The position numbers and the translations under genes were made by a program. Shown here one piece after another: positions 16,737-39,531 of a stretch of 62,898 bases of DNA (position 1 is its first letter; each line of letters begins with the position of its first letter). The notes under the pieces were generated by a model. That model saw only the letters and a program-made list of their open reading frames with translations. It made no database searches and was not told the origin of the DNA. The DNA is from a virus (taxonomy: Duplodnaviria > Caudoviricetes), in IMG/VR virus record IMGVR_UViG_3300005098_000046, positions 1 to 62,898 of that record; one strand, given 5' to 3'.

Positions 16737-16740
16737 TGAT

Positions 16741-17763: not shown

Positions 17764-17783
17764 GCGAGACCGCTGGGGTATCT

Positions 17784-18593: not shown

Positions 18594-18597
18594 CAAC

Positions 18598-20241
18598 ATG
18601 GTTCGCGTCACGATTGAAGGCCCGGCAGAAACGAAGGTCGTGGAAGCGATGCCGAAGCAAACCGGCATAGTTGGCGAGCGGCGCGTAGTACATAAGCGCA
18701 GCCGGTACCACGTGATAAATGTCGGCGATGATAGTCCGCTATGCAAGCCCCGTATTGGATACGAGGATTGGCGCGGGTCATGGGATGAGCCGGCGCTTAC
18801 GTGGGGGCCGCTGCTGTCATACGTATGGCCGACGGCACGAAAGAACTTCTCGCTTGATACGTTGGATATGCTGGCGGCGATGCAGTACCCGCTGCTGTGC
18901 ACTACCAGCCGGCGAGAGGCAGAAGCCGGCTTCGATAGAGTGCTGCGGCGCTATGCGGAAGAAGTCGGGGCTATCGTGGGGCTTACCGAAGGCGAAACGC
19001 CGGCCGCTTGCTGGAATGCTGGTCTGTGGCTGGCCAGCAGCGACTATGTGGCGCTTGTAGACGATGCTTCGCGGCTTGACCCGGCTGCTATTAAAGAATG
19101 GGCTTCCAGCTACAGTGAACTGGTGCGCCGCTTTGACGGCGCGGTGATTGTCCATGCTGCCATAGCTGCGCTGGTGAACGGCTTCCGCGCCGGCGAAACA
19201 GCAGACGAGTTTTCGGCGCGTGTGCGGGCTTTAGCGTCAAGTGGCGCCGCGCGGCGCGTGGTGCATATTTTGCCGCATCTGAATGCGCGAGGCGCGCAGG
19301 TTGTAGCCCTGCGGCTTATGCGCGCCATAGACGCAGACCATACAGTGCTCGCGGAGCGGCCAAGCGGCGAGCTTGCCGCTGAGTTTTTGCGCGTGGCGAA
19401 GGTGCGCGCTTGGTCAGAAGGCCAGCAGGCTCTCGCCGAAGCAGACGTGGTGCATTTCCACTGGGCTGGCTGGCGGCCGGCGGAAGGCTTGCCAGACGAA
19501 GCGCTGCTTGTCACCGAACATCTGCTGAACCGCCGATACGCGGCCTACATGAGCGGCGGGCGCTGCATTGTACCGTGGCGCTGCCGAAGGCCACGCAACA
19601 TCGGCGTCTTGCCGGAGGAGTTTCGGCCACCGCGCGTGGAGATAGCAAACCCGGTGGTGGAGGAGCTGCCGCGCGACGGCATGGAAAGACAGCTGCCAGA
19701 CAGCTTCGTGCTCGGCGTGACATCCGCCGAGGAATACAAAGGCATACGCGAGTGGCTTGCCGTTGCTGAAAAAGCCGGCCGCAAGTATGGCATGTCGTTT
19801 GTGCTATGCGGTCCGCGCCGGGGCGAGTCTTGCTGGACGCTGGTCGAGAACCGCATGGCTGAACTGCGCAAGGCTGGCATTGACGCGCAGTGCCTAGGGT
19901 ATGTCCCGCACGATGAACTTGCAGGTTTATACCACAAGGCGTTTGCGCTGTTGCACATGTCGCGCACCGAGAGCGCCGGGCTCGTCTTGATTGAAGCCCA
20001 GCAGCACGGCGTGCCGGTGGTGGCAACAGCGGTTGGCGGTGCGACCCAGCACGTGTATAACGGGGCCGTGGTTACCGTTGGCGATGTAAACGGCGCAGTG
20101 AAGGCACTGCGTGAAATGATGCCTATGGACTATAATGGTTCCTGTGGTGCTGTATTGCAGAAGGCAATGAAAAAGCACCAGCATTCAGCAGAGCTATATG
20201 CGGCGGCCTACAACATCACTGCGGGAGGCGCTCATCAATGA
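18598..20241 (+). CDS. Glycosyltransferase: degenerate GT2-like N-part fused to a GT4 (GT-B) domain
   Basis: WNAGLWLASSDYVALVDD; YKG..., LGYVPHDEL, SRTESAGLVLIEAQQHGVPVVATAVGG (EX7E). Confidence 0.88.
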   Translation: MVRVTIEGPAETKVVEAMPKQTGIVGERRVVHKRSRYHVINVGDDSPLCKPRIGYEDWRGSWDEPALTWGPLLSYVWPTARKNFSLDTLDMLAAMQYPLLCTTSRREAEAGFDRVLRRYAEEVGAIVGLTEGETPAACWNAGLWLASSDYVALVDDASRLDPAAIKEWASSYSELVRRFDGAVIVHAAIAALVNGFRAGETADEFSARVRALASSGAARRVVHILPHLNARGAQVVALRLMRAIDADHTVLAERPSGELAAEFLRVAKVRAWSEGQQALAEADVVHFHWAGWRPAEGLPDEALLVTEHLLNRRYAAYMSGGRCIVPWRCRRPRNIGVLPEEFRPPRVEIANPVVEELPRDGMERQLPDSFVLGVTSAEEYKGIREWLAVAEKAGRKYGMSFVLCGPRRGESCWTLVENRMAELRKAGIDAQCLGYVPHDELAGLYHKAFALLHMSRTESAGLVLIEAQQHGVPVVATAVGGATQHVYNGAVVTVGDVNGAVKALREMMPMDYNGSCGAVLQKAMKKHQHSAELYAAAYNITAGGAHQ

Positions 20242-24236: not shown

Positions 24237-25592
24237 ATGAAAGTTGGCAAACAGCATATCCTGCAAGGCGACAGCGCGAAGCTGCTGCGCAGCGTGCCCA
24301 AAGATTCGGTATCGGCAATTGTGACCGACCCGCCGTATGGCTGGTCGTTCATGGGCAAAAACTGGGATGCGACGCTCCCGCCGCGAGAGGTTTTCGAGCA
24401 ATGCCTGCGCGTACTGAAGCCAGGCGCGCGGGCATTTATCTTTTGCGGCAACAGAGGCGACACACACTGGCGTATGCTCCAAATGCTGGAAGAAGTCGGC
24501 TTTGACGTGGGGTATCAAGAACTTTGCTGGATATACGCAAGCGGCTTCCCAAAGGGCATCAATTTGAGCAAGCAGCTTGACGGGCTCGTCGGCGCCGAAA
24601 GAGAAGTCGTCGCAGTGCGCCGCAAGCTGTCGTCGTTTACCAGTGACGGCAAAAGTCACTACGGGGTCGGCTATCGCGATTACGACGAAGACATCATCGA
24701 AATATCAAAACCGGCGACAGCCGCTGCTAAGCAGTGGGATGGATGGTATACCGGCCGGCAAGCGCTGAAGCCGGCACACGAGTACATCATTCAAGCCGTG
24801 AAGCCGTTCCGCGGAACGGCGGCGGAAAATGTCTTGCGCCACGGCGCCGGTGCACTGAACATCGACGGCACGCGCTTGCCGACAGATAACCCTACGGGCT
24901 GGCAGGGCGAAACTGGCTTCCGCTACACACACAACTTCAGCAAATATGGCGGCATGAAGCGCAAGAAGAAAGCCCCGCCGCAGAAAAGGAAGTATCACAA
25001 GTTCCAACCGGGCAGCGGGGGCTGGATGGTATCAGCACGCAAGGATGTTGACAGCAGCCATACCGACGAGACATACGTGCCACACGAAAACGGCCGCTTC
25101 CCAGCTACTGTGCTGGCGCAAGGTTGCCCGGACTTCATGCACTTTTTCGACGTAGACGGTTGGGCGGAGCAGCAAAAGTTGCCAAAGGACTGGGCAGATT
25201 TAGCACAGATAGGGATGCTGTATTGCCCGAAGCCTGTGCGCGGCGAGAAGGACGCTGGCTGCGAAGACTTGCCGAAGAAACGCCCCATAACCGACTGGGG
25301 CAAAGACGGCTATGCGCGGCCGAAAAGCGAAGACGAGATGGTCGCGCCGTGTGGCAATTTCCACCCGACAGTGAAGCCGGTGCGGATATGCGCATTCTTG
25401 ATAAAGCTGGGGTGCCCGGAAGACGGCATAGTACTGGACCCGTTTGCAGGCAGCGGCACGACGGCCGTCGCTGCTGAATTACTGGGCATAGCTGGCGTCC
25501 ACATTGAACTGTCGCCCGAATACTATGCCATCATGAAAGCGCGCGTGCGCTGGGCAGAAAAACAACGCGGGGAAGGCCAGAGGAAAGAATAG
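24237..25592 (+). CDS. N4/N6 DNA methyltransferase (beta class)
   Basis: IVTDPPY, LKPAHE, GRFPA, HPTVKP, VLDPFAGSGTT. Confidence 0.95.
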   Translation: MKVGKQHILQGDSAKLLRSVPKDSVSAIVTDPPYGWSFMGKNWDATLPPREVFEQCLRVLKPGARAFIFCGNRGDTHWRMLQMLEEVGFDVGYQELCWIYASGFPKGINLSKQLDGLVGAEREVVAVRRKLSSFTSDGKSHYGVGYRDYDEDIIEISKPATAAAKQWDGWYTGRQALKPAHEYIIQAVKPFRGTAAENVLRHGAGALNIDGTRLPTDNPTGWQGETGFRYTHNFSKYGGMKRKKKAPPQKRKYHKFQPGSGGWMVSARKDVDSSHTDETYVPHENGRFPATVLAQGCPDFMHFFDVDGWAEQQKLPKDWADLAQIGMLYCPKPVRGEKDAGCEDLPKKRPITDWGKDGYARPKSEDEMVAPCGNFHPTVKPVRICAFLIKLGCPEDGIVLDPFAGSGTTAVAAELLGIAGVHIELSPEYYAIMKARVRWAEKQRGEGQRKE

Positions 25593-25624
25593 GGCGCCCA
25601 GCGCTTAACAGCACCGGGCACCCT
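25582..25624 (-). terminator. Intrinsic terminator closing the leftward array
   Basis: Minus RNA AGGGUGCCCGGUGC-UGUUAA-GCGCUGGGCGCCCU then AUUCUUU; 14-bp stem whose three G-U pairs are A-C mismatches on the + strand. Confidence 0.65.
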
Positions 25625-25653
25625 TTCCGATGAGGAGGGTCGGCATGAGAACC
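25582..25653 (-). ncRNA. Predicted anti-TIR small RNA (sRNA1)
   Basis: Contains CAUGCCGACCCUCCUCAUCGG, the antisense of the shared RBS barcode plus AUG, followed by the terminator; ends approximate. Confidence 0.6.
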
Positions 25654-25884
25654 TTAGTCAGTATACCTCACAAGATGCTTGCCTGTCCACAACCACGACT
25701 TGCCAGTAATCTCCATATTGCCATCTCCGTTCTCTTTGCATTCGGCGACGACGTATTCATGCCGGGCTGCGCCGGTATCGCGCAGCCAGCGAACAGCGTC
25801 GCGCCGACTGCTTGCCACATACACTGGCTCGATGTCGTCTTCAAGCCATTTGTGGTGTGGGATGATAAACAGCAAGCGTTTCAC
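25654..25884 (-). CDS. Early-array hypothetical protein
   Basis: GTG start behind GAGGAGGG barcode; 76 aa. Confidence 0.7.
   Translation of the reverse strand: MKRLLFIIPHHKWLEDDIEPVYVASSRRDAVRWLRDTGAARHEYVVAECKENGDGNMEITGKSWLWTGKHLVRYTD
25660..25689 (-). promoter_or_regulatory. Candidate sigma70 promoter for sRNA1
   Basis: TGGACA (25689-25684), 18 nt, TATACT (25665-25660), inside the 3' end of the last array gene. Confidence 0.45.
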
Positions 25885-25980
25885 AGGAACCCCTCCTCGA
25901 AAGATTTGTGGGGACAAAGCCCCCAAGAATGCATTATGCAAGGCAATGCACTCTTGGGGGCCTTGCGGCCCCCTTGCGGG

Positions 25981-26571
25981 CTACTCGCCGCCAGCGTCGG
26001 GCGCTTCGGCGACTTTCCTTTCGCTTTCGCTTTCGTCATCGGAAGATGCGTCGGCGGCTTCTTCGCTGCTTGCCATCGCGCGTAGCGCTGCAGCCATTGC
26101 ATCCAAGCGCTCGTCGTATTTCATGTCAGCATAGTCAAGCGGATTGGGCACGTCGTCAGGCCAGAGCGCATGAACGTCAACGCCAGCAGCAGCTATGGTT
26201 TGAAGTTGCGGGATGGCGTTGCTGATTTCATAAGAGAAGCCGCCCACGATGGCGCTCCGTATACTCTTTGCCTTCTGCGCAAGCACTTCACGTGCGCGGT
26301 CTGGCAAAAGGGCGAGCACTGCTGCTTGCAATGGTACGGGCGCAATGTCGAACGATGTTAGCGCATCGACGATTTGGGCTAGCGTTGCGCTCCCAAAGCG
26401 CTGTATCATGCTTTCGCGCTCTTGAATGGGGACATCGAACCCTTCTTCTTGCATTGCATCGAAGAATACTTGCATCCAGACACGTGTCAGCTCCTGCAGT
26501 GCTTCACCGGCGCGTACAGCAAGCTGCAACTGAGCACCTTCTCGCATCTTGTACGGCAACCCGAAAGCCAT
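25981..26571 (-). CDS. Early-array hypothetical protein, acidic C-terminus
   Basis: 196 aa helical ORF with barcode RBS. Confidence 0.8.
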   Translation of the reverse strand: MAFGLPYKMREGAQLQLAVRAGEALQELTRVWMQVFFDAMQEEGFDVPIQERESMIQRFGSATLAQIVDALTSFDIAPVPLQAAVLALLPDRAREVLAQKAKSIRSAIVGGFSYEISNAIPQLQTIAAAGVDVHALWPDDVPNPLDYADMKYDERLDAMAAALRAMASSEEAADASSDDESESERKVAEAPDAGGE

Positions 26572-26672
26572 TTGGCTCCCTCCTCATCAAAGGATTTTGT
26601 GGAGCACAAAGCTCCCGTGGAAGCACAGCGCAAGCCATGCTTCCACGGGGGCCTTGCGGCCCCCGCAGCAGA

Positions 26673-27974
26673 CTACTCCTTTTCTTTCAAGACCGGCGCG
26701 CGTGGCATAACAACCGCACACGGCACACCATCGCCAGGTTCCATGCCGTATGGCGTGAACACGACCGCAGTCTTTGGCGTGACGACATGTATGGTGACTT
26801 CTTCAGTATCGAACGCAGCGAATAGCCGAAGCGCATCGCGGACAAAGTACGGGTTCAAGCCCACCTTCATATCGTCGCCTTCAACGATGGTGGCCGGCAA
26901 TACATGCACAGCCATGTCTTCTTGTGGCGTCATTGCTTCCATCCGCTGCGTGCGCAGCTGTAGTGTGCCGGCATTGGCTTCAAGCCACATGATGTCATCA
27001 AGAACATCATGTTTCTCGCCCCCGGGGCGCGCCTTCGCTTGCCATGCTGCATCTACTACATGTCGATGTTCCGCAAGCACATCAAGCGCTTGCTCTGTTG
27101 ATATCGTCCAGTGCGCGGTGTGCGTATCTGGCGAAGGCACAACGCGGGGCCACCAATCCGGCAGCTTGTAATCGCCGTGCCGCGCACGCACCCACCAATT
27201 GCCAGCGACGACATCAACGACGTTCTTGCCATGATATAACGTCGCTTCGCGAGCGCCTGTTTTGTATGCGGCTTCCAGCACGCCAAGCGCCTCGCCGACG
27301 ATAAGTATCGGGGCGTCGCCCTTCACTTCAGCAGGGATTGCGGCCAGCCGATACGTGTCGGTGGCAATCGCCGTGCCGTCTCTCATGATGTGCAAGTAGC
27401 GGTACTTCTCATATCCAGTAGCATCGCTTTCGCCGAGAAATGCGCGCAACGCGCCAGCAATCAACAGCAACGCCGAAGCGTCGCGCGGGCCGCCAGGCTT
27501 AGGCATAGCAAGCGGTTTTTCGTCGTTGTCTGTAAGCTCGACTTCGTTGTCGTTGACGGCCAGCACGTTCGCACTTGCGCGGATGATGAGCGATTCGTCC
27601 TTCACAGATGCGCCCTTCAGCAGCGCACGAAGGACTTTGGCAGGCACAGCTATCGTGCCAGTCTCGCATACATCCGCAGCGAATGCAACGCGCGCCTGGA
27701 CAGACTCGCGCGGGCTATCGGCGTGCACAATGAAGCGCGTGGCCGTTGCGGAGAGAAAAACAGTCTTGGGTCTGAGCACCGACAGCAGCTTGCGGATGTA
27801 GAGCAGCGCTCGGCTGCTCGTGGCAATTGATAGAGACTTGCCGCTTGGCAGCTTGTCGCGTGGCGGCCGCGCCACGGCGAGTGCTTGCGGCTTCGGCTTT
27901 GGCCTCGGCCTCAGCTTTTGTAGCGGGGTCGCCGGTTTCGCGCCGATGTTGACACGGAGTCTAAACGGCTTCAT
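26673..27974 (-). CDS. dnaN: DNA polymerase III beta sliding-clamp homolog (divergent)
   Basis: GTIAVPAKVL, AIATDTYRLA, GDYKLPDW, VGLNPYFVRDAL, AVVMPR match beta-clamp motifs; ~50 aa basic Pro-rich N-extension. Confidence 0.8.
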   Translation of the reverse strand: MKPFRLRVNIGAKPATPLQKLRPRPKPKPQALAVARPPRDKLPSGKSLSIATSSRALLYIRKLLSVLRPKTVFLSATATRFIVHADSPRESVQARVAFAADVCETGTIAVPAKVLRALLKGASVKDESLIIRASANVLAVNDNEVELTDNDEKPLAMPKPGGPRDASALLLIAGALRAFLGESDATGYEKYRYLHIMRDGTAIATDTYRLAAIPAEVKGDAPILIVGEALGVLEAAYKTGAREATLYHGKNVVDVVAGNWWVRARHGDYKLPDWWPRVVPSPDTHTAHWTISTEQALDVLAEHRHVVDAAWQAKARPGGEKHDVLDDIMWLEANAGTLQLRTQRMEAMTPQEDMAVHVLPATIVEGDDMKVGLNPYFVRDALRLFAAFDTEEVTIHVVTPKTAVVFTPYGMEPGDGVPCAVVMPRAPVLKEKE

Positions 27975-28081
27975 AGCGAAACCCTCCTCATCGTGATTTC
28001 TGGGGACTATGCCCCAGCCAGGATGTTAACGGCAGTGTTAACGCCCTGGCCGGGGCACCAGCCCCGGCGGCCCGTCGCTTA

Positions 28082-28282
28082 TCACTGCGCACGTGGAAAT
28101 GCATAGAAGTACACGGGCTTGACGCCATGTGGCGTCTGCAGTGCGCGCACTTCCAGCAGCACGCCACGTGCTTGTTCGCGTGGCGAAGCGACGACAATCC
28201 ATGCTGTATTCGGTTTTGCGCGGCGCACTTTGTCTTCCAGCTGGCGCCGTCGCGTATCCACATCGGTATCCAGCATATCCAT
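28082..28282 (-). CDS. Hypothetical protein
   Basis: 66 aa, GAGGAG RBS at 28293-28298. Confidence 0.6.
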   Translation of the reverse strand: MDMLDTDVDTRRRQLEDKVRRAKPNTAWIVVASPREQARGVLLEVRALQTPHGVKPVYFYAFPRAQ

Positions 28283-28289
28283 GCTCGGC

Positions 28290-28523
28290 TCACTCCTCTG
28301 CGGCCGGCACCGCAGCGTGCAGGTCACGCCAGTCACATGCGCCGCACTGCGGGCATGGCTCCGGCTTGCCGTCCGGCTGGGCACTCGGCGCATCTTCATA
28401 GCCGCACTGATTACACCGGCACCAGTAAATGCCTCCAAGCACACCGTTCTTCTTGAAGTGCCGCCAACCGCGCGAAAAGCTGATGGGGCGGCCGCACCAA
28501 ACACATGTTCTAATCGCTGGCAT
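28290..28523 (-). CDS. Cys-rich Zn-ribbon protein
   Basis: CVWCG, CRCNQCG, CPQCG. Confidence 0.7.
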   Translation of the reverse strand: MPAIRTCVWCGRPISFSRGWRHFKKNGVLGGIYWCRCNQCGYEDAPSAQPDGKPEPCPQCGACDWRDLHAAVPAAEE

Positions 28524-28782
28524 TCTGCTCACGCCCCTCAATGCGCGTCAGGCATTCTTGGCAGACAGTCCAGCCAGGCTGGGCGGGGTCGCCGGGGTCG
28601 TGCGGAACCCAGCGGCCACAGATGCCGCAATGACTGCCGTGATATTTAGTGGCATACACAGCAGCGGCGTTCCAGCCTGCATAATAACCGGAGCGCCAGA
28701 TGTGCTTGTGTGCCACAGCCACAGCGATAGCAGCGCCAACGAACCCGGAGAAGATACCACCAAGCCACGGAATCGTATCCAT
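28510..28782 (-). CDS. Membrane-anchored protein with CxxC pairs
   Basis: N-terminal hydrophobic helix, CGICG, CQEC; barcode RBS. Confidence 0.75.
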   Translation of the reverse strand: MDTIPWLGGIFSGFVGAAIAVAVAHKHIWRSGYYAGWNAAAVYATKYHGSHCGICGRWVPHDPGDPAQPGWTVCQECLTRIEGREQNASD

Positions 28783-28919
28783 GCTGAACCCTCCTCATCG
28801 TTTTGTCGCCGAGCGCATCGCTCGGCCAGAAGGTCGCTGTGCATTGACGGCCTTCTGGCCGAGCGGCCGCCCGAAGGCGGCCACTCGGTTGCAGCATAGG
28901 ACCAGGGAGGCAAGGCAAA

Positions 28920-29342
28920 CTACTTGGCCTTCTTCTGCTTGGCCTTCTCCGCGCCGTCGCCGTCGGCCTTCTTCGACTTAGCCTTCTTCGATTCGGCCTT
29001 CTTCTGCTTGGCCTTCGGCTCAGCCTTCTTGCCGTCATCAGTCTTCTTGGGCTTGGCTTCGGCTTCGGCCTTGGACTCATCCGGCGTTGCGGCAGCTTCT
29101 GGCTCCACGCCGATAATGCGCATAGCCTCTTCGGCGACAGCCGCGACAGCCGCTTGCACGTTCTTCTTCGGCAACTTGGGCGCCTTCTTCTTGCCAGCGG
29201 CCGCAGCGTACAGAAACACCAACAGGTCGAGCGCGGCTTCCACCAAGCCGGCTGCTATCGCAGCTTGATGGTCGGCCATCCCTTGGGCGAGCGCTTCCAA
29301 GTCTGCCAAGCGTTTCTCTTGCTCTTTCTCGGAGGCCATCAT
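28920..29342 (-). CDS. Protein with Lys/Ala-rich histone-H1-like tail
   Basis: C-term KKAEPKAKQKKAESKKAKSKKAD...KAKQKKAK; barcode RBS. Confidence 0.8.
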   Translation of the reverse strand: MMASEKEQEKRLADLEALAQGMADHQAAIAAGLVEAALDLLVFLYAAAAGKKKAPKLPKKNVQAAVAAVAEEAMRIIGVEPEAAATPDESKAEAEAKPKKTDDGKKAEPKAKQKKAESKKAKSKKADGDGAEKAKQKKAK

Positions 29343-29455
29343 GGACCCTCCTCATCTAAAGTAGTGACGCTATCGCGTCGGGACGTTGTAGCGTCCCCAG
29401 AAGGGCAACAGAGCGCAACCGCTGCCCTTCTGGGGGCGCACAGGCCCCCACGGTT

Positions 29456-29629
29456 TTACTCTTCGGCGCTGGCTTCGGCATCATCGTCGCCGATTTCTTC
29501 GCCAAGCGCTTCAGCCAGCTCTTCTGGCGTTTCAATATAGAAGAACGCCATGTCTTGCCAGTACTCGTCTGGGCACCGGTAATCCGGCGGGTCGGGCGGG
29601 ATAATCCATTCTTCGCCGACCATAGCCAT
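29456..29629 (-). CDS. 57-aa very acidic protein (not in the ORF track)
   Basis: MAMVGEEWIIPPDPPDYRCPDEYWQDMAFFYIETPEELAEALGEEIGDDDAEASAEE; TGATG-coupled to the upstream gene and fills the cassette exactly. Confidence 0.75.
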   Translation of the reverse strand: MAMVGEEWIIPPDPPDYRCPDEYWQDMAFFYIETPEELAEALGEEIGDDDAEASAEE

Positions 29630-30027
29630 CACTTCTTCCGCAAGCCGACGGTTATCTGCTCGCCGGGGTCAAGCGCCGCCGGCAGCCGCTTGCCAGCTTC
29701 AACAAGCTCGCGCACAAACGTGCGCAAACGCTGCCAGCTTGGCTTCGTTTCGATAAGGTCCAGCCGGCCGCGCTTTCGCAGCCACTTGACCACTTCGTCG
29801 GTCGTGTGGCCCTCAGCCAAGCGCGGATAGTACACCCGACTGATGTACACCGTGCCGACGCTTGTCTTGGCGCTCGTCAGCCCCTGCGCTTCAAGCGCTT
29901 CGCGGATTGCGGCAGCGACTTGCTCTTCTTCGGCAGCGACTGCAGACATTTGCGCCTTCAATTCGGCGCGCTGCTGCCGAAGTTCGGCGAGACGCTGTGC
30001 CAGTTCGTCAATCGTGGCTTCTGCCAT
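29629..30027 (-). CDS. Coiled-coil phage protein (Gp157/Gam-like architecture)
   Basis: N-terminal coiled coil then GLTSAKTSVGTVYI, KWLRKRG, GKRLP; barcode RBS; family call tentative. Confidence 0.6.
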   Translation of the reverse strand: MAEATIDELAQRLAELRQQRAELKAQMSAVAAEEEQVAAAIREALEAQGLTSAKTSVGTVYISRVYYPRLAEGHTTDEVVKWLRKRGRLDLIETKPSWQRLRTFVRELVEAGKRLPAALDPGEQITVGLRKK

Positions 30028-30145
30028 TGTCAGACCCTCCTCATCGTGATTTTAGAGCGCATCCGCGCTCCCCAGAAGGCATCAGCGGCAGAAGGCCAAT
30101 GCCCTCTGGGGAACGCGGCCAGGGCCGCATTCCCAGAAGCGCGTG

Positions 30146-30442
30146 CTACTGTTCTTGCTCTTCGCATTCAGCAACGCCGGTGGCGTACCCGTAGACGAAC
30201 GACAGAGCTTCTTCGACGCTGCCCCACACGCGGTGAAACGGCTTGCCGTCTTTGACCAACCAGACGCGCTTGATGCCGACTTCGCGGTAATCCCAATTTA
30301 CCCAAAACTCCAAGCCCAGCCGCGCAGCATAGAACGCTTCGTCGGCGGTCACAAGCAGAAACGCCTTGCCACTATCGGGCAACCGCCGTTCAAACACGAA
30401 GGGTACAAACTGCGCATCGAGCACATCCTTGTCGGTAATCAT
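30146..30442 (-). CDS. Early-array hypothetical protein
   Basis: 98 aa, barcode RBS. Confidence 0.75.
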   Translation of the reverse strand: MITDKDVLDAQFVPFVFERRLPDSGKAFLLVTADEAFYAARLGLEFWVNWDYREVGIKRVWLVKDGKPFHRVWGSVEEALSFVYGYATGVAECEEQEQ

Positions 30443-30579
30443 GCCGAACCCTCCTCATCGTTAGGCTCGGAGCGCATCCGCGCTCCCCAGAAGGCACTCG
30501 TGGATGAATGCCCTCTGGGGAGCACGGCGGAGTCGGGGCCAGCTCCGCCGCGCTCCTTTGAGCCGGGTGACACAGGCTG

Positions 30580-30810
30580 CTACCACTCTTTGCTGCCGAT
30601 TACGGTAGCTATCACGTTGATGATAACACGCTCGCCGTTCGGCAACTCAGCGCGCGTTTGCGCTTGCCAACCGACGCTACCGGTCTTGAACTCGCGCGCC
30701 TTGCCAAGCGGCACGGTGACGCGCGTCTCGCCGATGCTTACGTCAGCGTGGCCGATAGCATCAAGCTCGGCAATTCGCTCTTCGCGTGTCTTTTCCTTCT
30801 TGCCAGCCAT
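30580..30810 (-). CDS. Small beta-rich hypothetical protein
   Basis: 76 aa, REFKTGSVGW...TVIGSKEW; barcode RBS. Confidence 0.75.
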   Translation of the reverse strand: MAGKKEKTREERIAELDAIGHADVSIGETRVTVPLGKAREFKTGSVGWQAQTRAELPNGERVIINVIATVIGSKEW

Positions 30811-30895
30811 TTCGGACCCTCCTCTACGGAGATTTGCGAGTCATAGCGACCCCCACTGGGTACCCGGCCTTTCGCCAGATACCCAGGTGGGGTAG

Positions 30896-31207
30896 CTATG
30901 CAATCGCCGCCTTCGCGGCTTGCTCGGCACGCTTCTTCTCCAAGCATTCCTTGCAAATCTGCCCGACGCGCGGCCAGTCGCGCACTGCAGGATTGTTGCA
31001 GTGCTTGTAGCCGCAAATGCGGCGATGCTCGCCACGGTAATATCCAGCCAGCCAACCGCCGCACGCTCTGCAGCGCCCGGACATGTTGGCGCACTGCTCA
31101 AGCCCACAGTCCAGGCACCGCGCGCGTTCGTGGCACCGTTCTCCAGTGCCGTTGACGCGGCCGCACTCAGGGCAACAATTCTTGCGATACCACTCTTCGC
31201 GTGTCAT
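30896..31207 (-). CDS. Multi-Zn-finger Cys-rich protein
   Basis: CPECG, CLDCG, CRACG, CGYKHC, CKEC; barcode RBS. Confidence 0.8.
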   Translation of the reverse strand: MTREEWYRKNCCPECGRVNGTGERCHERARCLDCGLEQCANMSGRCRACGGWLAGYYRGEHRRICGYKHCNNPAVRDWPRVGQICKECLEKKRAEQAAKAAIA

Positions 31208-31342
31208 CGTGGACCCTCCTCATCGTGATTTCTGGGGCACAGCCCCAGCCAGAACCTTGCAACGGTGCAGGGTTCTGGCCGGGGCGCCGGCGGCGGGGGG
31301 GCAACCGCCGACACCCCAGCTGGGAGGAGGGTAGGCAGTAAG

Positions 31343-31663
31343 CTACTTCAGCGCTTCGCGGAAGGCACTCGGCCCACGCGCAAGCGTGCCGTCCGGCTCG
31401 ATGCGGAACGTCGCCACGCGGCGGCACGCGCCGCCCATCTTATCTGGCGTGCGCTCAACAAAGACGAAAACGCTGCCGGTCACGGCGCCATCGGGCTGCT
31501 GATGACCAATCTCGGCGAAGTAAGCCTCGCCGTCTGGCGCTATCCAGCTATCAGCAACCGGCTTGCCGTCAAGCAAGTCTGGCTGATAGCCAGGCAGCTT
31601 GGGGATGCGCGCCATGATTTTAGTGAACGTGTCAAGCGCCGCCTTCGTTGCGGAGTATCCCAT
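31343..31663 (-). CDS. Early-array hypothetical protein
   Basis: Start moved to ATG 31663 behind barcode; 106 aa. Confidence 0.75.
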   Translation of the reverse strand: MGYSATKAALDTFTKIMARIPKLPGYQPDLLDGKPVADSWIAPDGEAYFAEIGHQQPDGAVTGSVFVFVERTPDKMGGACRRVATFRIEPDGTLARGPSAFREALK

Positions 31664-31781
31664 TTGTTTCGCCCTCCTCATCGGTGAATGCCAAGGCACA
31701 AGCCTTGGCCGGAGCCTCGCCGCTTGACGAAGCTCCGGCCAGGGCGCCGGCTGTGCGCCAGCACCTTGGCGTTCGCGTGGC

Positions 31782-32225
31782 TTACATACCGAGATGCTTG
31801 CGATAGATAGCCACCAGGTCCACTTCGGACCATTCGTATTCTTCGGCAGCATCGCGCAATTCCTTCAGCGCTTCTTCTTTGCTGTCGTAGATGGCCTCTT
31901 CGTCCATGATTTTCGGGTCAAAACGCAGCAAGCTGCCAGGCCACTCCACGATGGACCATACGCCGCCGCCCATGTCGTACAAGAAAGCATAGCCATAGTG
32001 CGAATAGAACACGGGGCCAGCGGCCGCGCATTCCACCAGCATCGTCCAGTCGAAAAGCTCATAGTCTTCGACCAGCTCTGCGGGCAGCGGCGCACTGGCC
32101 TTCAGCACGTTGCCACGCATCCGCTCTGAGTCGGCGACTTCAGCATCAATGCCGTGCTTGCGGCACGCATGAAGCAAGCCGCTAGGAATCGGCCGTGCTG
32201 CACTTACGTAAATGCGCTTCTCCAT
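31782..32225 (-). CDS. Early-array hypothetical protein
   Basis: Start moved to ATG 32225 behind barcode; 147 aa. Confidence 0.75.
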   Translation of the reverse strand: MEKRIYVSAARPIPSGLLHACRKHGIDAEVADSERMRGNVLKASAPLPAELVEDYELFDWTMLVECAAAGPVFYSHYGYAFLYDMGGGVWSIVEWPGSLLRFDPKIMDEEAIYDSKEEALKELRDAAEEYEWSEVDLVAIYRKHLGM

Positions 32226-32330
32226 CTTGGGACCCTCCTCGCTTCGGTTTGGAGCGTATTGCACGCCCAGCTTGCCTGCCGCACATCACGACAAGCAAGC
32301 TGGGGGCGCAAGCGCCCCCAGGGGCCTCTG

Positions 32331-32573
32331 CTACATCCGGCGAAGATAGAACATCAGCAGCTGGCTTGCGGCCGCCTTGGCGACTTGCTCGCTCTTATCG
32401 CCGGGCCGCCCGCGCACAACGATGCGATACGTGGGGAAGAACCAGCCCAAGTCCAGCTTCTGCACCCAGATGCCGCCAAAGAAAAGCTCATCGCCGGTGT
32501 GCATGGCCCGCAGGCACTTGGCCAACGCATCCACGTCCACAAAGTCTTTGACCTTCGGCTTGAATGTCTGCAT
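32331..32573 (-). CDS. Early-array hypothetical protein
   Basis: ATG 32573 behind barcode; 80 aa. Confidence 0.75.
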   Translation of the reverse strand: MQTFKPKVKDFVDVDALAKCLRAMHTGDELFFGGIWVQKLDLGWFFPTYRIVVRGRPGDKSEQVAKAAASQLLMFYLRRM

Positions 32574-32673
32574 CGCTTGACCCTCCTCACCGGTTTTGGG
32601 GTTCATAAGAACCCCACCAAGCCACAGGTATCCGCCCATGCCTTGGTGGGGGCCTTATGGCCCCCTCGCTTCA

Positions 32674-33219
32674 CTACGTGCGGTCTGCCAGGCCGAACGC
32701 AGCCTTGACAAAGCCTTCGTAGTCGCCGCGCTTCAACGCTTCGCGCGCACGTGCGCGCTCTTGCTCAATCTCGCGGCGCGCTTGCTCGTGTTCTTCCAGC
32801 GCTTCCTTGCACATCGCCAGAAAGCGCTCTGTGGCCGCCTTGCGCGAAGCATACAGCCGAACCCACATCTTGCTGCGGCCGCGCACGTGAAACACGCGGC
32901 CAGGCTTGGCATTCTTCGCTGTGGGTGTAGGTTCATACTCCAGCGCATACGGGTCACGCTCGCGCTCACCAAACTCCATCACAGCAAGCTGGTGGCCGAC
33001 CAGATACAGCACGCGGCCAGCGACTCTCATGCAGAGAATCGCCGGCGCATGGCCGGTATTGACACAGCCGGGCGCAGGCTCCGGCCCAGCCAGGCCGGTG
33101 CCAGGCTCAAGGCTGGCCGCTTCTACTTGCTGCCGGTACTTGGCAAGCTGCTCTTCCACGCTGAGCGGCACACGCGCGCGATATTCGCGGCGGCGCTTGC
33201 GGCGCTTTTGCCGTTTCAT
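32674..33219 (-). CDS. Early-array hypothetical protein, very basic N-terminus
   Basis: MKRQKRRKRRRE; 181 aa; barcode RBS. Confidence 0.75.
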   Translation of the reverse strand: MKRQKRRKRRREYRARVPLSVEEQLAKYRQQVEAASLEPGTGLAGPEPAPGCVNTGHAPAILCMRVAGRVLYLVGHQLAVMEFGERERDPYALEYEPTPTAKNAKPGRVFHVRGRSKMWVRLYASRKAATERFLAMCKEALEEHEQARREIEQERARAREALKRGDYEGFVKAAFGLADRT

Positions 33220-33324
33220 CGCTTGACCCTCCTCATCGTTTTTGGCGCACCAAGTGCGCCCAGTCTACGCAGACACAGAACGCATCTGCGTAGACTGGGA
33301 GCACACAGCGCTCCCAGAACGCGC

Positions 33325-33756
33325 CTAATCACGGGGCCACGGCTCATCCATCCACGCAAGCTCCACAGCCTTGACCAGCTTGCGCCGGCACACCCACTTC
33401 TTGTAGTCGGCAGGTCTGCGCATCACAGTCAGCAAGTACTTCAAGCGCGAGTCACGCGAGCGGCGCGGCGGCTTGACCACAAACAGCACCAACATACCGC
33501 GCAACGGCGCCAGGTAGTAGCCTTCGGTGGTGCCAGTGTGCCAATTGAACAATTCGGCAGCCGCATCAGCAATCGTGTGATGCAATTGCATGGGGCCTTT
33601 GCTGTACCCACATTTGGCACAAGCGCCAGCGCCTTCTTCATCAGCCAAGTACTGCGCGCCGGTATCCGGCTCGCATACCCAGTGCGTGGACCATGTATGG
33701 CCACACCGTGGGCATAGGAACTCAACCTTCTCGCCTTGGACATGCCAAGATAGCAT
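33325..33756 (-). CDS. Zn-ribbon protein
   Basis: FLCPRCGHTWS...CAKCG; ATG 33756 behind barcode. Confidence 0.75.
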   Translation of the reverse strand: MLSWHVQGEKVEFLCPRCGHTWSTHWVCEPDTGAQYLADEEGAGACAKCGYSKGPMQLHHTIADAAAELFNWHTGTTEGYYLAPLRGMLVLFVVKPPRRSRDSRLKYLLTVMRRPADYKKWVCRRKLVKAVELAWMDEPWPRD

Positions 33757-33857
33757 TGTTGGACCCTCCTCACCGGACATTTGGGCTCCCAAGAACCCCA
33801 TCAGCCTGCCAGTGAAAACCGACAAGCTGATGGGGGCCTTGCGGCCCCTTCCGCCAG

Positions 33858-34268
33858 CTACACAATCGCATTCGGCAATATCTCGCGCTTCAGCGCTTCA
33901 ATCGCCATCTCCTTGTTGGTGTAACCGCCCCATTCAATGCCACGGCCAGCGACGCTGGCGAAGCGCTCAATCTCTTCCTTGTCCATCACGTAGAACGTCC
34001 ACAGCCACGTGCCATCGACATGCACGTTCACAATCACATAGAACGAGCTGCGGGGACGCACCGCACGCTGTACTTCGCGCATCACTTCGCCGCGCGTCGT
34101 CAGCACTGGTGGCGCGTCGTGCATGTGGAGACAGCATGGGCATCGCAAAACATCGTCGGGGCTATTATCGCCGACTTCGAGAATGTACTTGTCATCCTCG
34201 AAGTACAGCCCCACCGACCAAGGGCGCCCACACGCCTTGCATAAAAATACAATCCGTGCAACCTTCAT
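33858..34268 (-). CDS. Zn-ribbon protein (probable paralog of neighbour)
   Basis: FLCKACGRPWS...CPCC; barcode RBS. Confidence 0.75.
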   Translation of the reverse strand: MKVARIVFLCKACGRPWSVGLYFEDDKYILEVGDNSPDDVLRCPCCLHMHDAPPVLTTRGEVMREVQRAVRPRSSFYVIVNVHVDGTWLWTFYVMDKEEIERFASVAGRGIEWGGYTNKEMAIEALKREILPNAIV

Positions 34269-34354
34269 GTCAGACCCTCCTCACCGGATATTTGGGCCAT
34301 AGCGGCCCCCGCTGGGCGCTCAGGGCATCAGCCCCAAACGCCCAGATGGGGCGG

Positions 34355-34669
34355 CTATACCACCATGTCGCTCAGCAACGCACGAGCGATGATAACAGCA
34401 GCCTTCAGCGACGCCTCGGCGCGCTTGCGCGGGTCATCACCCTTGCGGATGATGAAGCGCTCCGTAGTGTTGCAACCGCTCTCGCACTCCACCACATAGC
34501 AGTCGGGCTGCTGCTCGACAACGATGTCGCTGCTTCGCGTGCGCGCGAAGCAGCGCTCGCCGTCAATCGTGGTAACCAACGCCGCCAGCCGGCCGATAGC
34601 TTTCTCCAGCTCGCGGGTCGCCGCTTCAAAAAGCTCGTCGTGCTCGCCATCTTTCCACACGGCACTCAT
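34355..34669 (-). CDS. Early-array hypothetical protein
   Basis: ATG 34669 behind barcode; 104 aa. Confidence 0.75.
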   Translation of the reverse strand: MSAVWKDGEHDELFEAATRELEKAIGRLAALVTTIDGERCFARTRSSDIVVEQQPDCYVVECESGCNTTERFIIRKGDDPRKRAEASLKAAVIIARALLSDMVV

Positions 34670-34772
34670 TTTGTTGACCCTCCTCACCGGATGTTTGAGT
34701 TCACAAGAACCCCACCAAGGCGCATCGCTCGTCTACGCCTTGGTGGGGGCCTTGCGGCCCCCCATTAAGAAC

Positions 34773-35165
34773 CTACAGGAGAGCGGCGTGCGCCATAGCT
34801 TCGCGCACTATGTTCTCGACCTTGCTGCGCAGCACGATGCGGCGCTTCCGCTCGCCGGGCGTCACGGTGCTCGGCGCCGGCCGGCCGCCGACGCCGCCGC
34901 GGTCAACGCGCAGGTCTGCGCACTGCTTGACCAGCAACACCGCCGCTTGCCATGCAGCCCACATCGCATCGCCATCGCCATTGAAGCGCGTCAATTCATC
35001 GGCATCTTCAACCACGAAAATGCTTTCATCTTCGCGCTTCACAATGAACGGGCCGACCTTGGCATACGTGCCAACCGGCATGGCAAGCAACCGTTGCTCC
35101 GTGCAAGCAATCGCAGCATCGATGACCGCCCACAGGTTCTCGATGCCAACAGCAGCATACTTCAT
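34773..35165 (-). CDS. Early-array hypothetical protein
   Basis: 130 aa, barcode RBS. Confidence 0.75.
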   Translation of the reverse strand: MKYAAVGIENLWAVIDAAIACTEQRLLAMPVGTYAKVGPFIVKREDESIFVVEDADELTRFNGDGDAMWAAWQAAVLLVKQCADLRVDRGGVGGRPAPSTVTPGERKRRIVLRSKVENIVREAMAHAALL

Positions 35166-35275
35166 CGTGGACCCTCCTCGCAGGAATTAGGCAGGTTATC
35201 CTGCCCCACCATGCAACCCGTCACAGGCTGCATGGTGGGGCAGGGCAGCATTCGCTGCCCTTGCCCATCGCCGCA

Positions 35276-35584
35276 CTACGACGCACGCTCGAACCATTCA
35301 ATGCGCATCTTGCCAGGCAAGCTATCCACTTCGCCGGCCAAGAACGCGCAGCCATAAGCGCCAGCCGCCTTCACCGCAGCGTCAAGCGCGGCCAATTCTT
35401 CGCCGCTGGGCTTGACAGCCGCAATGTAATCGTGAATGGCCTCGTCATAGGGGCGCTGGTCTGGCTCAATCACAAAGTCGAATCCCCCGCTGATGGGATT
35501 CCATTCCCACCAGCCTTCCAGCACAGCAGCCTTCAGGACGAAACCCTTCGGCGGCCGCTTGCTATGCTTAAGCAATGTAGTCAT
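35276..35584 (-). CDS. First gene of the leftward array, hypothetical
   Basis: ATG 35584 behind variant barcode CCGATGAGGAGTG; 102 aa. Confidence 0.75.
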   Translation of the reverse strand: MTTLLKHSKRPPKGFVLKAAVLEGWWEWNPISGGFDFVIEPDQRPYDEAIHDYIAAVKPSGEELAALDAAVKAAGAYGCAFLAGEVDSLPGKMRIEWFERAS

Positions 35585-35706
35585 GGCGCTCACTCCTCAT
35601 CGGTATTGGGAAGCCTTGTGGCCTCCCTTGACGGTCATGGCATTCAGCCAGGGCCGTCAAGGGAGACCACCTTGCGGTGGCCTTCCCCCGATGAGGAGGA
35701 GGGTCC

Positions 35707-36153
35707 TTTGCGGAGATTCGGATTATCAGCAGCCGCCAGAAGAGCGTCGTCTATCTGGCGACCTTGCGCGCGCACTCCGCTAGGCTTTACCGTCACGCGC
35801 GTTGCCAGCCAGAGCTACTGGCTATGTCAAGGTGCGCACCAGCCCCACTCTGTGGATAACCATCTACGACTCTGGTGAGTCGCGGCGCGATGATTATCGG
35901 CAATTCGCCTTGGCCACAGAGTCTCGGCATCGCTGCGATATGCCACCACGCTATCCACCAGCCTTTCGTGCCAACGCACTCAGAACGCAAGCACGCCACG
36001 CTTGCAGAACCTTGTGCGACTCCGACTATGATTGTTGCCGCTCTGCCGCGCGTCAATCGACGCGCGTCCAGCACCGTTCGGTGACCGAGTCGCGCCAGTT
36101 CGCGCTCTGTGTGAAGGTTCGCCGTCGCTGGCGCGCTTGCGCGCGCCATTGAC
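35707..36153 (-). ncRNA. Predicted long structured leader/ncRNA
   Basis: No convincing CDS; nested stems on the minus strand starting with GGCGCGC-GCAA-GCGCGCC just after a promoter. Confidence 0.5.
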
Positions 36154-36159
36154 ATGATA

Positions 36160-36188
36160 ATGCTAATCGACGCGCGCGAATATGTCAA
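36160..36188 (-). promoter_or_regulatory. Sigma70-type promoter for the leftward array
   Basis: TTGACA (36188-36183), 17 nt, TAGCAT (36165-36160); flanked by inverted repeat ATTGACAT (36148-36155) / ATGTCAAT (36182-36189). Confidence 0.7.
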
Positions 36189-38592: not shown

Positions 38593-39531
38593 ATGGGCCG
38601 AAAGAACGGAAATGGAAACGGCAAGAAGAAAGGCACCAAACTTGCGCCGGTGCAGCCGGCAGGCGGTATCCCTGCACATATTCTCGCCGCCGCCCAGCAA
38701 GCGCCGCAAGAAGTGCTGCCGGAAGCGGACCCGGAATTGCGTACCATCCCGCGCGCGCGGCTTCTGCAGAGAATGAGCCGCGACTTGGGCGCGTTCGAGC
38801 CGGGCAATATCGTCAATTCGTTGACCGGCGAGCTCATCTGGCCGCGCGCTGTGCATCTCGAACCGCCGGATTGGGTGCCGGAAGATTTCATCATCGACCC
38901 CGGCAAAGACGACCGCGCTGCTTGGGTCGTAGTGCCGCTGGACGCCTATACTGAGCGCATCTACTTCGAGGGCCTGGAGCTTGTGTGCCGCAGCGACCGC
39001 ATGGGGCGCCAGCCGCTCCCCGGCATGGCGCAGAGCGCTGCTGTCACAAGCTGCGCGGAATGCCCGCTCAAAGAATGGGGCACTACCGGCGAAGGCAAGC
39101 GCGTGCCGCCGAAGTGCAACAAGGTCGTTACGCTTGTTGTGCTTGACTACTTCAACCTGCGTGACTTGCTGGCCGGCAGCTACAGCGCCGATTTGCTCAG
39201 CGCCGCGCCAGTGGCGGTGAGCTTTGTGCGCACGAGCTTCAAGGCCGGCGCGTTTCTGTACCGGATGCTCACGCTGTCGCGGCCACCGACACCGCCGTAT
39301 CTGCGCCGCTTCGTTGTCTGGCCAGAGCTGGTCAAGGGCGACCTTGGCGAATATTACGTCTTCCGCACCGGGCTTGCCGGCTGGGTAGAGGCCGACGAGA
39401 TTGAGCCGCTTGAGCGGCTTGCTGAGATGCTTCACGAAACCCAGCCCCAAGTTTCGGAAGCCTTGCCCAGCGAGTTTAGCGACGACACCGGCGACGCACT
39501 GGACGATGAAGACGTGTTCGCCGATATGTAG
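38593..39531 (+). CDS. Putative phage ssDNA-binding protein
   Basis: PRARLLQ, CRSD, CAECP..W, PPKC and acidic aromatic tail DDEDVFADM; between helicase and primase. Confidence 0.6.
   Translation: MGRKNGNGNGKKKGTKLAPVQPAGGIPAHILAAAQQAPQEVLPEADPELRTIPRARLLQRMSRDLGAFEPGNIVNSLTGELIWPRAVHLEPPDWVPEDFIIDPGKDDRAAWVVVPLDAYTERIYFEGLELVCRSDRMGRQPLPGMAQSAAVTSCAECPLKEWGTTGEGKRVPPKCNKVVTLVVLDYFNLRDLLAGSYSADLLSAAPVAVSFVRTSFKAGAFLYRMLTLSRPPTPPYLRRFVVWPELVKGDLGEYYVFRTGLAGWVEADEIEPLERLAEMLHETQPQVSEALPSEFSDDTGDALDDEDVFADM

Follow-up and report, generated by a model that had tools for sequence, protein, structure and literature searches.

Our study examined the complete, 62,898 bp genome of an uncultured phage with direct terminal repeats, held as IMG/VR record IMGVR_UViG_3300005098_000046 (the window hereafter being this whole stretch), and in particular a minus-strand block in which each of 18 translation units is preceded by a structured intergenic element and a strong ribosome site. 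The GC skew reverses at about 25.6 to 36 kb and the genes there lie on the minus strand. The block runs from 36.19 to 25.59 kb, about 10.5 kb, and most likely represents one long early or middle operon, the units of which would be co-transcribed. Its candidate start is the best promoter-like site in 25-37 kb (36188-36160, 10 of 12 matches) and the only strong one, and it ends at an intrinsic terminator within a region (25580-25660) that has a folding z of -4.9. A terminator scan of 25-37 kb returned 13 sites, compared with 11.6 +/- 3.1 in shuffles, and only the match at the operon end, 25624-25591, had a long (15 bp) G+C-rich stem. Three of the 18 translation units hold two or three closely packed open reading frames (ORFs).

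Each unit opens with a gap (G1 to G18, counted from the promoter end) in which, read on the minus-strand RNA, three hairpins (P1, P2 and P3) are followed by an A-rich spacer, an extended Shine-Dalgarno (SD) site that we term the barcode, and the start codon of the first gene (g1 to g18). The features are listed below, where z is the folding z-score of an element on the minus strand against 100 dinucleotide-preserving shuffles, MFE denotes the minimum free energy fold and R1 is a covariance model described further on.

36160-36188, minus strand: sigma-70-like promoter, candidate operon start (TTGACA, 17 nt spacer, TAGCAT), by consensus match only.
35585-35688, minus strand: G1, with P1 35688-35660 (GCAA loop), P2 35659-35629, P3 35627-35608, then spacer AAUACC, variant barcode GAUGAGGAGUGAG and the AUG of g1 (35584-35276); z -7.2.
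35166-35266, minus strand: G2, with P1 35266-35238, P2 35237-35207, P3 35206-35189, barcode UGCGAGGAGGGUC and g2 (35165-34773); z -7.4; the three-hairpin form is the MFE.
34670-34762, minus strand: G3, with P1 34762-34745 (GCAA), P2 34744-34714, P3 34712-34697, barcode GGUGAGGAGGGUC and g3 (34669-34355); z -5.8; among the seeds of R1.
34269-34364, minus strand: G4, a variant with a weak P1 34364-34350 whose loop contains the upstream stop codon, a long P2 34349-34309, P3 34308-34294 and g4 (34268-33858); z -6.7; a 29 bp continuous hairpin in the MFE.
33757-33848, minus strand: G5, with P1 33848-33833 (GCAA), P2 33832-33799, P3 33798-33783 and g5 (33756-33325, zinc-ribbon-like); z -8.1.
33220-33315, minus strand: G6, with P1 33315-33297, P2 33296-33262, P3 33260-33244, an exact barcode and g6 (33219-32674); z -7.7; R1 match of 22 bits, E 0.004.
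32574-32665, minus strand: G7, with P1 32665-32648 (AUAA), P2 32647-32616, P3 32615-32598 (UUAU) and g7 (32573-32331); z -6.2.
32226-32320, minus strand: G8, with P1 32320-32301, P2 32300-32270, P3 32269-32250 and g8 (32225-31782); z -7.6; R1 match of 27.5 bits.
31664-31770, minus strand: G9, with a long P1 31770-31738, P2 31737-31710, P3 31709-31690 and g9 (31663-31343); z -8.5; the three-hairpin form is the MFE.
31208-31320, minus strand: G10, of the 'closed' class, with a long P1 31320-31278, P2 31277-31250, P3 31248-31232, an exact barcode and g10 (31207-30896); z -6.1.
30811-30895, minus strand: G11, a variant without P1, with an 18 bp hairpin 30892-30851, an overlapping P3 30852-30838, barcode GUAGAGGAGGGUC and g11 (30810-30580); z -6.3; no hairpin triple in the constrained parse.
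30443-30556, minus strand: G12, with a long P1 30556-30519, P2 30518-30487, P3 30486-30469 and g12 (30442-30146); z -7.9.
30028-30133, minus strand: G13, with P1 30133-30110, P2 30109-30072, P3 30071-30054, an exact barcode, g13 (30027-29629, DUF7307/Gam-like) and the overlapping g13b (29632-29456); z -6.3.
29343-29449, minus strand: G14, with P1 29449-29432, P2 29431-29399, P3 29398-29380, a fourth, extra hairpin within a 23 nt spacer, an exact barcode and g14 (29342-28920); z -6.6; R1 match of 34.4 bits, E 1e-5.
28783-28888, minus strand: G15, with P1 28888-28859 (c(UUCG)g), P2 28857-28827, P3 28826-28808 and g15 (28782-28510), after which come two more ORFs with no element separating them; z -7.0.
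27975-28068, minus strand: G16, with P1 28068-28049, P2 28048-28019, P3 28017-28000 and g16 (27974-26673, sliding-clamp-like); z -5.9.
26572-26664, minus strand: G17, with P1 26664-26647 (GCAA), P2 26646-26617, P3 26615-26601 and g17 (26571-25981); z -7.8.
25885-25973, minus strand: G18, with P1 25973-25956 (GCAA), P2 25954-25926, P3 25925-25909, barcode UUCGAGGAGGGGU and the GUG of g18 (25884-25654); z -6.3.
25591-25624, minus strand: intrinsic terminator, operon end (15 bp stem, 10 G-C pairs, tail AUUCUUUCCU).

The architecture was derived by folding the 18 gaps and applying a constrained parse for simple abutting hairpins. An unconstrained best-triple parse merged into an extended P2, and a permissive stem-triple detector (57 minus-strand and 47 plus-strand matches, compared with 17-39 in shuffles) was replaced by energy-based measures. 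The constrained parse placed P1, P2 and P3 side by side, with linkers of 0-1 nt, in 17 of the 18 gaps, and so agreed with the initial annotation of this DNA, which had described three abutting hairpins followed by an A-rich spacer and a barcode. Helices of 6-18 bp (P1), 10-15 bp (P2) and 5-8 bp (P3) make up a structured element of about 65-90 nt. The P1 loop is GCAA in five gaps (25.96, 26.65, 33.84, 34.75 and 35.67 kb) and c(UUCG)g in one (28.87 kb), exactly where that annotation had located these loops.

The barcode is a 13 nt extended SD site with the consensus GAUGAGGAGGGUC. The string GAGGAGGG has 17 minus-strand copies, all within 25.89-35.18 kb, and three plus-strand copies, against a chance expectation of 1.3; the 18th barcode is a variant, GAGGAGUG, at 35.59 kb. 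Five of the 18 barcodes equal the consensus and 12 have at most one mismatch to it, and no barcode was found on the minus strand beyond the block anywhere in the genome. It lies 4-6 nt ahead of the start codon in 17 of the 18 units, and the start is AUG in all units except that of g18. The spacer between P3 and the barcode measures 6-12 nt, or 23 nt in G14, and is composed of 45 % A and 7 % G. Outside the array many starts showed no recognisable strong SD when 26 plus-strand and three minus-strand longest-ORF starts were inspected by eye with their positions unrefined, which sets the array genes, with their strong ribosome sites, apart. Strong SD sites and 5' structures are described in a review as stabilising mRNAs (PMC3997798).

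Like all energies given here, the stability of the elements is a predicted one, and it is extreme. In a 90 nt sliding fold of the minus strand all 18 gaps reached -51.5 kcal/mol or lower, compared with a genome mean of -27 +/- 7; outside the block no window went below -51.4 kcal/mol. Within the block, a single coding window (32986-33105, in g6) was as stable as the elements (-53.1 kcal/mol), and a 27 nt imperfect direct repeat lies near it (32877-32903 and 32994-33020). All 18 elements had minus-strand z-scores between -5.8 and -8.5. The minus strand was the more stable in 16 of 18 elements (mean -53.1 versus -45.4 kcal/mol, Wilcoxon p = 3e-4), the plus strand being slightly favoured in two gaps, of which G15 is one, and the folding z was more negative on the minus strand in 17. 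The parsed helices, 469 bp in total, contain 47 G.U pairs and six A.C/C.A 1x1 mismatches, a count biased by parsing on the minus strand.

Conservation of structure was assessed by an arm-swap test, as MAFFT alignments of the elements were inconsistent with structure for P1 and P3 of several members. Duplex energies of true and swapped partners were compared across the 16 parsed elements. P2 arms paired at -19.0 kcal/mol with their true partners and at -6.4 when swapped (swapped equal or better in 3/240 combinations); the corresponding energies were -20.1 and -10.4 for P1 (22/240) and -11.1 and -4.9 for P3 (14/240). In an RNAalifold consensus of six elements, 14 of 29 pairs had changed on both sides. 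The covariance model R1, built from five elements and run with filters off on both strands of the whole genome, recovered all 13 other elements at E<=10, eight of them at E<0.05, and gave no match with E<1 outside the 18 gaps. Its minus-strand match outscored the plus-strand match on 15 of the 18 elements.

Taken together, the elements are a statistically extreme family of structured cis-elements with conserved structure. The sense-strand stability bias, the G.U count, the strand scores of R1, the tetraloops of GNRA and UUCG type and the constant register relative to the ribosome site point to selection acting on the minus (sense) strand transcript, although a role as single-stranded DNA of the same sense would also be compatible. 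The initial annotation had reached the same view of the transcript from A-C mismatches on the plus strand that become G-U on the minus strand. It had also held that the gaps share an architecture but not a sequence, which holds only in part, since sequence sub-families exist and a model from five elements finds the other 13. G3, G7, G5, G17 and G18 have P1 in common. G12 and G13 have the P2 3' arm and P3 in common (30055-30097 and 30470-30512, 84 % over 43 nt), while P3, spacer and barcode are identical in G10 and G16 (27981-28005 equals 31213-31237, 25/25 nt); these are the shared stretches that had been noticed near 30.03/30.45 and 27.98/31.21 kb. The suggestion of a new cis-RNA motif is supported both by this family and by Rfam 15, which gave no match at gathering score across the whole window. 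At E<=10 there were 20 sub-threshold matches in 25.5-36.3 kb, mostly to microRNA-precursor models, the best scoring 32.6 bits against a threshold of 64. In the open-access literature searched, no description of such a three-hairpin module was found.

The elements were further seen to have two alternative folds. The P1 3' arm pairs with the P3 5' arm at -10.0 kcal/mol in cis, compared with a permuted mean of -7.2 (p = 5e-5), which bears out the likeness of P1 and P3 arms within a gap that had been remarked upon from the letters, and contiguous extension of P2 by the P1 and P3 arms was likewise greater than in permutations (p = 4e-4). Owing to the complementarity of the P1 3' and P3 5' arms, the whole element is a long imperfect palindrome, the arms of which are themselves hairpins. 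The predicted refolding into an extended P2 or a junction was also recovered. A continuous hairpin of 18-29 bp through P2 is part of the MFE in 15 of 18 elements, and in the other three an extended fold lies no more than 0.8 kcal/mol away. The three-hairpin form and its alternative, a long hairpin or junction, are within 1.6 kcal/mol of each other in 11 of 16 elements, and in the remaining five the long form is favoured by 3.9-7.7 kcal/mol. Both folds are supported separately, because the long hairpin alone does not explain why P1 pairs with itself, and because loops 1 and 3 have changed together between the paralogous G3 and G7 (GCAA/UUGU versus AUAA/UUAU).

The parsed units differ in what precedes P1. 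Twelve of 16 have a short 5' flank (9-15 nt, stop codon counted), and four (G1, G10, G12 and G15) have a long one of 25-34 nt with anti-SD-like stretches, that of G15 being 34 nt long and containing GCCUCCCU. Two of the long flanks are associated with barcodes in reverse orientation, and a third reversed copy lies at the end of the operon.

35690-35705, plus strand: anti-barcode 1, reading ...ACCCUCCUCCUCAUCG on the minus RNA, directly 5' of G1.
31324-31331, plus strand: anti-barcode 2, reading ACCCUCCUC on the minus RNA, in the long 5' flank of G10.
25629-25641, plus strand: anti-barcode 3, an exact (13/13) reverse complement of the consensus, in the 3' untranslated region (UTR) between the g18 stop codon and the terminator.

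Anti-barcode 1 folds with the g1 barcode into a closing stem, and the g1 SD had a predicted probability of 0.00 of being unpaired in the full gap, which rose to 0.58 when the 5' part was removed; for g10 the corresponding values were 0.00 and 0.61. In these predictions g1 and g10 clearly appear as closed units, and g15 and g12 weakly so. Anti-barcode 3 is largely unpaired in the predicted fold, and its predicted duplexes with the 18 initiation regions ranged from -20.6 to -41.6 kcal/mol, compared with -14.2 +/- 5.0 for random operon 31-mers. The plus-strand frames behind the reversed copies were rejected as genes: the ORF behind anti-barcode 3 (25645-26085) is antisense to g18, G18 and the 3' end of g17 and its product is not protein-like by eye, and the frame behind the copy at 35.70 kb meets a stop after 24 codons.

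We interpret the elements as an intercistronic module for RNA processing, end-capping and translation, a reading to which we give a probability of roughly 45 %. An RNase III-type endoribonuclease, specific for double-stranded RNA, would act on the long form. Once the P2 helix had been cut, the freed arms would snap back into P1 and P3, so that the upstream message would receive P1 as its 3' cap and the downstream message P3 as its 5' cap. Together with the A-rich spacer and the very strong SD, P3 would then serve as a 5' stabiliser and as a standardised, insulated, high-efficiency initiation site. In closed units the upstream anti-SD would close the junction over the SD, and a cut or unfolding would separate the two, turning translation on. 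A single scheme of this kind, which is the one we prefer, would explain why the helix is long, the arms are self-complementary, the linkers have zero length, P1 and P3 are alike, the sense strand is favoured and the layout is fixed.

Precedents are the early genes of T7/T3 and SP82/SPO1, which carry intercistronic RNase III sites of roughly two helical turns, the product retaining an end hairpin; in SP82 the cut is followed by a strong, purine-rich SD that serves as a 5' stabiliser. Such a site is an intercistronic double-stranded hairpin of about 20 bp or more, and the continuous hairpins of 18-29 bp found in 15 of the 18 elements are of this kind. The size range of RNase III substrates covers these hairpins, while P2 alone is 10-15 bp here. 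The elements differ from the T7 and SP82 sites in having no sequence or Rfam relation to them, in their number (18 versus 3-5) and in that each arm of the long hairpin is a hairpin in its own right, which would allow both products to be capped.

Several observations weigh against this interpretation. No RNase or RNA-binding domain was found among the ORFs covered by our Pfam scans, which were roughly 60 in number, short or unrecognised ORFs being included in part. SD accessibility is moderate in many units and is barely altered by a simulated cut, and on G1, G10 and G15 the plus-strand match to R1 scores as high as the minus-strand match or higher. The covariation is all between paralogous copies in one genome, and part of it could reflect common descent together with maintenance of a palindrome at the DNA level. 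Spontaneous switching may be slow, given predicted barriers of 4-19 kcal/mol on the way from the three-hairpin to the long form. Finally, inverted duplication of a hairpin-bearing segment would give P1-P2-P3 and both folds in one step, and the bistability may thus be partly historical rather than functional.

The elements might instead remain uncleaved and serve as translational insulators or coupling switches, which we consider unlikely. As an insulator, the element would lock up the G+C-rich intercistronic RNA, keep the SD single-stranded and shield the gap from Rho and from single-strand nucleases; as a coupling switch, it would respond to a ribosome terminating 6-12 nt upstream of P1, which would melt the P1 5' arm, flip the fold and couple downstream initiation to it. 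The spacing agrees with this: counted from the first base of the stop codon, P1 starts after 9-15 nt in 12 of 16 units, a distance that a terminating ribosome could reach. The invariant layout of spacer and SD agrees as well. The folds are near-isoenergetic and separated by sizeable barriers that a helicase-active ribosome could overcome, and in g1 and g10 the SD pairs with an anti-SD just 3' of the preceding stop codon. SD exposure, on the other hand, differs little between contexts in most units, specific pairing between the P3 3' arm and the SD is not evident by eye, and a simple insulator needs neither the sharing of P1 and P3 arms nor loop-loop covariation.

Anti-barcode 3 raises a further, quite unlikely possibility, in which the element is a self-resealing processing switch, both arms capping the new ends, and the barcode is an antisense address. 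The anti-barcode in the 3' UTR, released once the 10.5 kb operon had been transcribed, would pair with the 18 sites and shut the regulon off, thereby acting as a timer. Judged from the predicted duplexes, anti-barcode 3 could be an antisense RNA against all 18 ribosome sites.

A function at the level of DNA is improbable in our view. Cruciforms or hairpins could be recombination handles for cassette shuffling, comparable to the promoter early stem-loop (PeSL) cassettes of T4-like phages or to attC, or they could be binding or replication sites. Each element is a long imperfect palindrome, loops included, element halves are common to unrelated genes (G10/G16 and G12/G13) while no two cassette proteins are paralogous, the cassettes encode almost exclusively ORFans, as in hyperplastic regions, and the phage encodes a RusA junction resolvase (50651-51193). 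The initial annotation had proposed such a recombination handle for shuffling genes; the shared halves and the lack of paralogous proteins fit recombination or gene conversion between elements rather than establishing gene shuffling. The sense-strand asymmetry (16/18), the G.U pairs, the GNRA/UUCG loops and the fixed distance and orientation with respect to SD and start codon point to RNA rather than DNA. Integron attC sites likewise accompany small promoterless cassettes as imperfect palindromes in which structure is conserved over sequence and one strand is favoured, but here each ORF has the element on its 5' side, at a constant distance from the SD, and the favoured strand is that of the mRNA sense. 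The attC core sites (RYYYAAC ... GTTRRRY) occurred in 0/18 elements on either strand, and no integrase or other site-specific recombinase was seen among the roughly 60 ORFs scanned. In the PeSL report (PMC4122927), a terminator and an early promoter motif flank small ORFan genes in a plastic region of T4-like phages. With these our elements share a short composite motif beside small ORFan genes, and repeated homology could allow unrelated genes to be swapped. They differ from PeSL as so described in that they have no U-tract terminators and that their conserved part is a ribosome site. An early promoter in each repeat was also not found, as none of eight promoter-like sites in 25-37 kb falls within an element, although two overlap an SD or start (34273-34244 and 31207-31178).

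It is very improbable that the elements are selfish or neutral palindromic repeats, akin to REP/BIME or miniature elements, that spread through the operon gaps with an incidental effect on mRNA. REP/BIME sequences are intergenic operon hairpins, sometimes alternating in orientation, that stabilise upstream mRNA; they have a sequence consensus and are scattered in host genomes, and the alternating inverted hairpins of BIMEs recall the layout seen here. The sequence sub-families are such as spreading copies would form and the elements occupy intergenic positions only. Against this, the elements are phage-borne and sequence-diverse, with exactly one per translation unit, in one orientation and at a fixed SD distance. 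None occurs elsewhere in the genome, where there was neither an R1 match with E<1 nor, outside the block, a comparably stable window, and none was seen in 1.27 Mb of other viral and metagenomic loci, save for loci chosen for their P1 sequence. Compensatory change has also kept the helices while P2 sequences have fully diverged.

Least probable of all is that the elements are transcriptional attenuators or pause sites, tandem U-less hairpins of the sort proposed as terminators for G+C-rich bacteria that would need a phage antiterminator and would grade or time expression, for although strong G+C-rich hairpins stand at every gene junction and alternative folds are classical attenuator logic, an A-rich stretch rather than a U-tract follows P1, P3 or the long hairpin, terminator-like sites occur at shuffle level, so that the elements are not plain terminators (two weak such sites touch elements, 32321-32300 at G8 P1 and 26624-26611 at G17 P3), the operon-end terminator is canonical, and no antiterminator or RNA polymerase gene was recognised among the roughly 60 Pfam-scanned ORFs.

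The barcode can be compared with the start-associated sequences (SAS) of Cluster K mycobacteriophages. In the report that describes them, SAS are 13 nt asymmetric motifs with an SD core and flanks unexplained by rRNA pairing, present in 11-19 copies at non-structural genes, 3-7 nt before mostly AUG starts and in unusually long gaps (PMC3203893). The barcode resembles SAS thus described in having 18 copies in one orientation, at non-structural genes with long gaps, 4-6 nt before a start that is AUG in 17 of 18 cases, and in its rare reversed copies that precede no gene (three here and one in Adephagia). As far as position is concerned, it behaves as an SAS in every respect. It differs in the motif itself (GAUGAGGAGGGUC here and GGGATAGGAGCCC there), in belonging to an unrelated phage and in that each copy is coupled to a structured element. 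The SAS report also describes an extended SAS (ESAS), a pair of 17 bp inverted-repeat half-sites with a shared consensus, for which the authors report little support for an mRNA hairpin (PMC3203893). Like the ESAS so described, our elements place an inverted repeat immediately 5' of the barcode in the same intergenic position, but no sequence is common to their arms, each element has helices of its own that are compensated, and the hairpins number three rather than one.

Mycobacterium phage Adephagia (JF704105; L238) carries 16 forward SAS copies and one reversed copy (38683-38695, minus strand), which lies 3' of all 16, about 190 nt past the canonical terminator following gp92 and in the loop of a 9 bp inverted repeat (GTCGACCAG ... 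CTGGTCGAC). The parallel with the reversed barcode here is suggestive, and by analogy an antisense logic may also lie behind the reversed SAS copies of Cluster K mycobacteriophages. Overall, the layout recalls two known kinds of device, the processing or stability hairpins between phage cistrons and the start-associated sequences, and we did not find the layout itself described.

The genes of the operon offer few clues to function. The barcode-preceded ORFs encode 76-433 aa each, all cassette ORFs show the coding signature GC3 > GC1 > GC2, and by Pfam their products are almost all ORFans, with one DUF7307/Gam-like protein, one clamp-like protein and two weak zinc ribbons. The 3' end of g14 (28926-29016) contains tandem 15 nt repeats that encode a lysine/alanine-rich basic tail with KKAK-type repeats. 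At the head of the block, an ORF of about 120 aa (35793-36156, minus strand) has its ATG about 5 nt past the -10 hexamer of the promoter-like site and lacks a barcode. It could be a first gene of the leaderless kind; alternatively, the region could serve as a long leader that does not code for protein. Elsewhere the genome encodes tape-measure, portal-like and terminase-like proteins, glycosyltransferases, a DNA methylase, an SNF2 helicase, a primase and ParB, in addition to RusA, and no tRNA genes were found in it. A glycosyltransferase cluster with an NAD-dependent epimerase/dehydratase (14119-20241, plus strand) lies between the tail genes and lysis-like genes. A candidate transcription regulator of the phage is a 379 aa protein (42227-43366, minus strand) that contains five helix-turn-helix (HTH_17) repeats and weakly matches sigma-70 region 4.

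The phage is an orphan without a close relative in the collections searched. Neither the near nor the distant search mode revealed DNA similarity to any of 50,697 phage records, and its large terminase subunit (TerL)-like protein is at most 28 % identical to the TerL of any cultured phage. The clamp-like g16 protein had no match besides itself among 5.8 billion proteins, no IMG/VR locus and no tblastn match in phage records. For the SNF2 helicase the best proteins are 35-38 % identical, none exceeding 38 %, and an alignment-based scan of IMG/VR gave 80 loci, all at <=31 % identity. Twelve of these (L127-L138) were folded and had 0-6 outlier windows apiece, the array being absent from them. Three distant phage contigs carrying SNF2 helicase genes contain dense tandem arrays of 11-17 nt, iteron-like units (L195 19895-20240, L162 8285-8395 and L201 804-885).

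Searches for the elements and barcodes themselves gave a similar picture. A scan of IMG/VR for the barcode 14-mer returned at least 119 matching stretches; among the 119 listed loci other than the window, 118 had a single copy and one (L082) had two, and we read these matches as chance. A P1-plus-SD pattern had no match in IMG/VR and matched 20 metagenome and 11 genome loci, none of these 31 folding into the architecture. On 100 other viral and metagenomic loci (1.27 Mb) R1 gave seven weak matches, six of them in loci chosen for containing the P1 sequence. One phage contig (L194, IMGVR_UViG_3300009149_004057) repeats a different extended ribosome site, AGGAGCACGA, at eight sites between 2234 and 12107; CA and then ATG follow seven of the eight copies, with no conserved hairpin triple upstream. 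Barcode-like ribosome sites may thus recur in unrelated phages.

In summary, if the proposed interpretation of the elements as processing, capping and translation modules is correct, this phage would have a natural and compact way of handling a long operon as 18 messages, each stabilised independently and all translated equally; a single module would serve for cleavage, for capping at both ends and as a standard ribosome site. In synthetic biology, standard ribosome sites are combined with Csy4 or ribozyme insulators for the same task. At 65-90 nt, the elements are short enough for synthesis and for assay in vitro or in model hosts, even though the phage is uncultured. The proposed interpretation would also extend the start-associated sequences, which were described in 2011 with their function unexplained, beyond the mycobacteriophages, and would tie them to a defined RNA structure and a candidate antisense partner, making their function testable.

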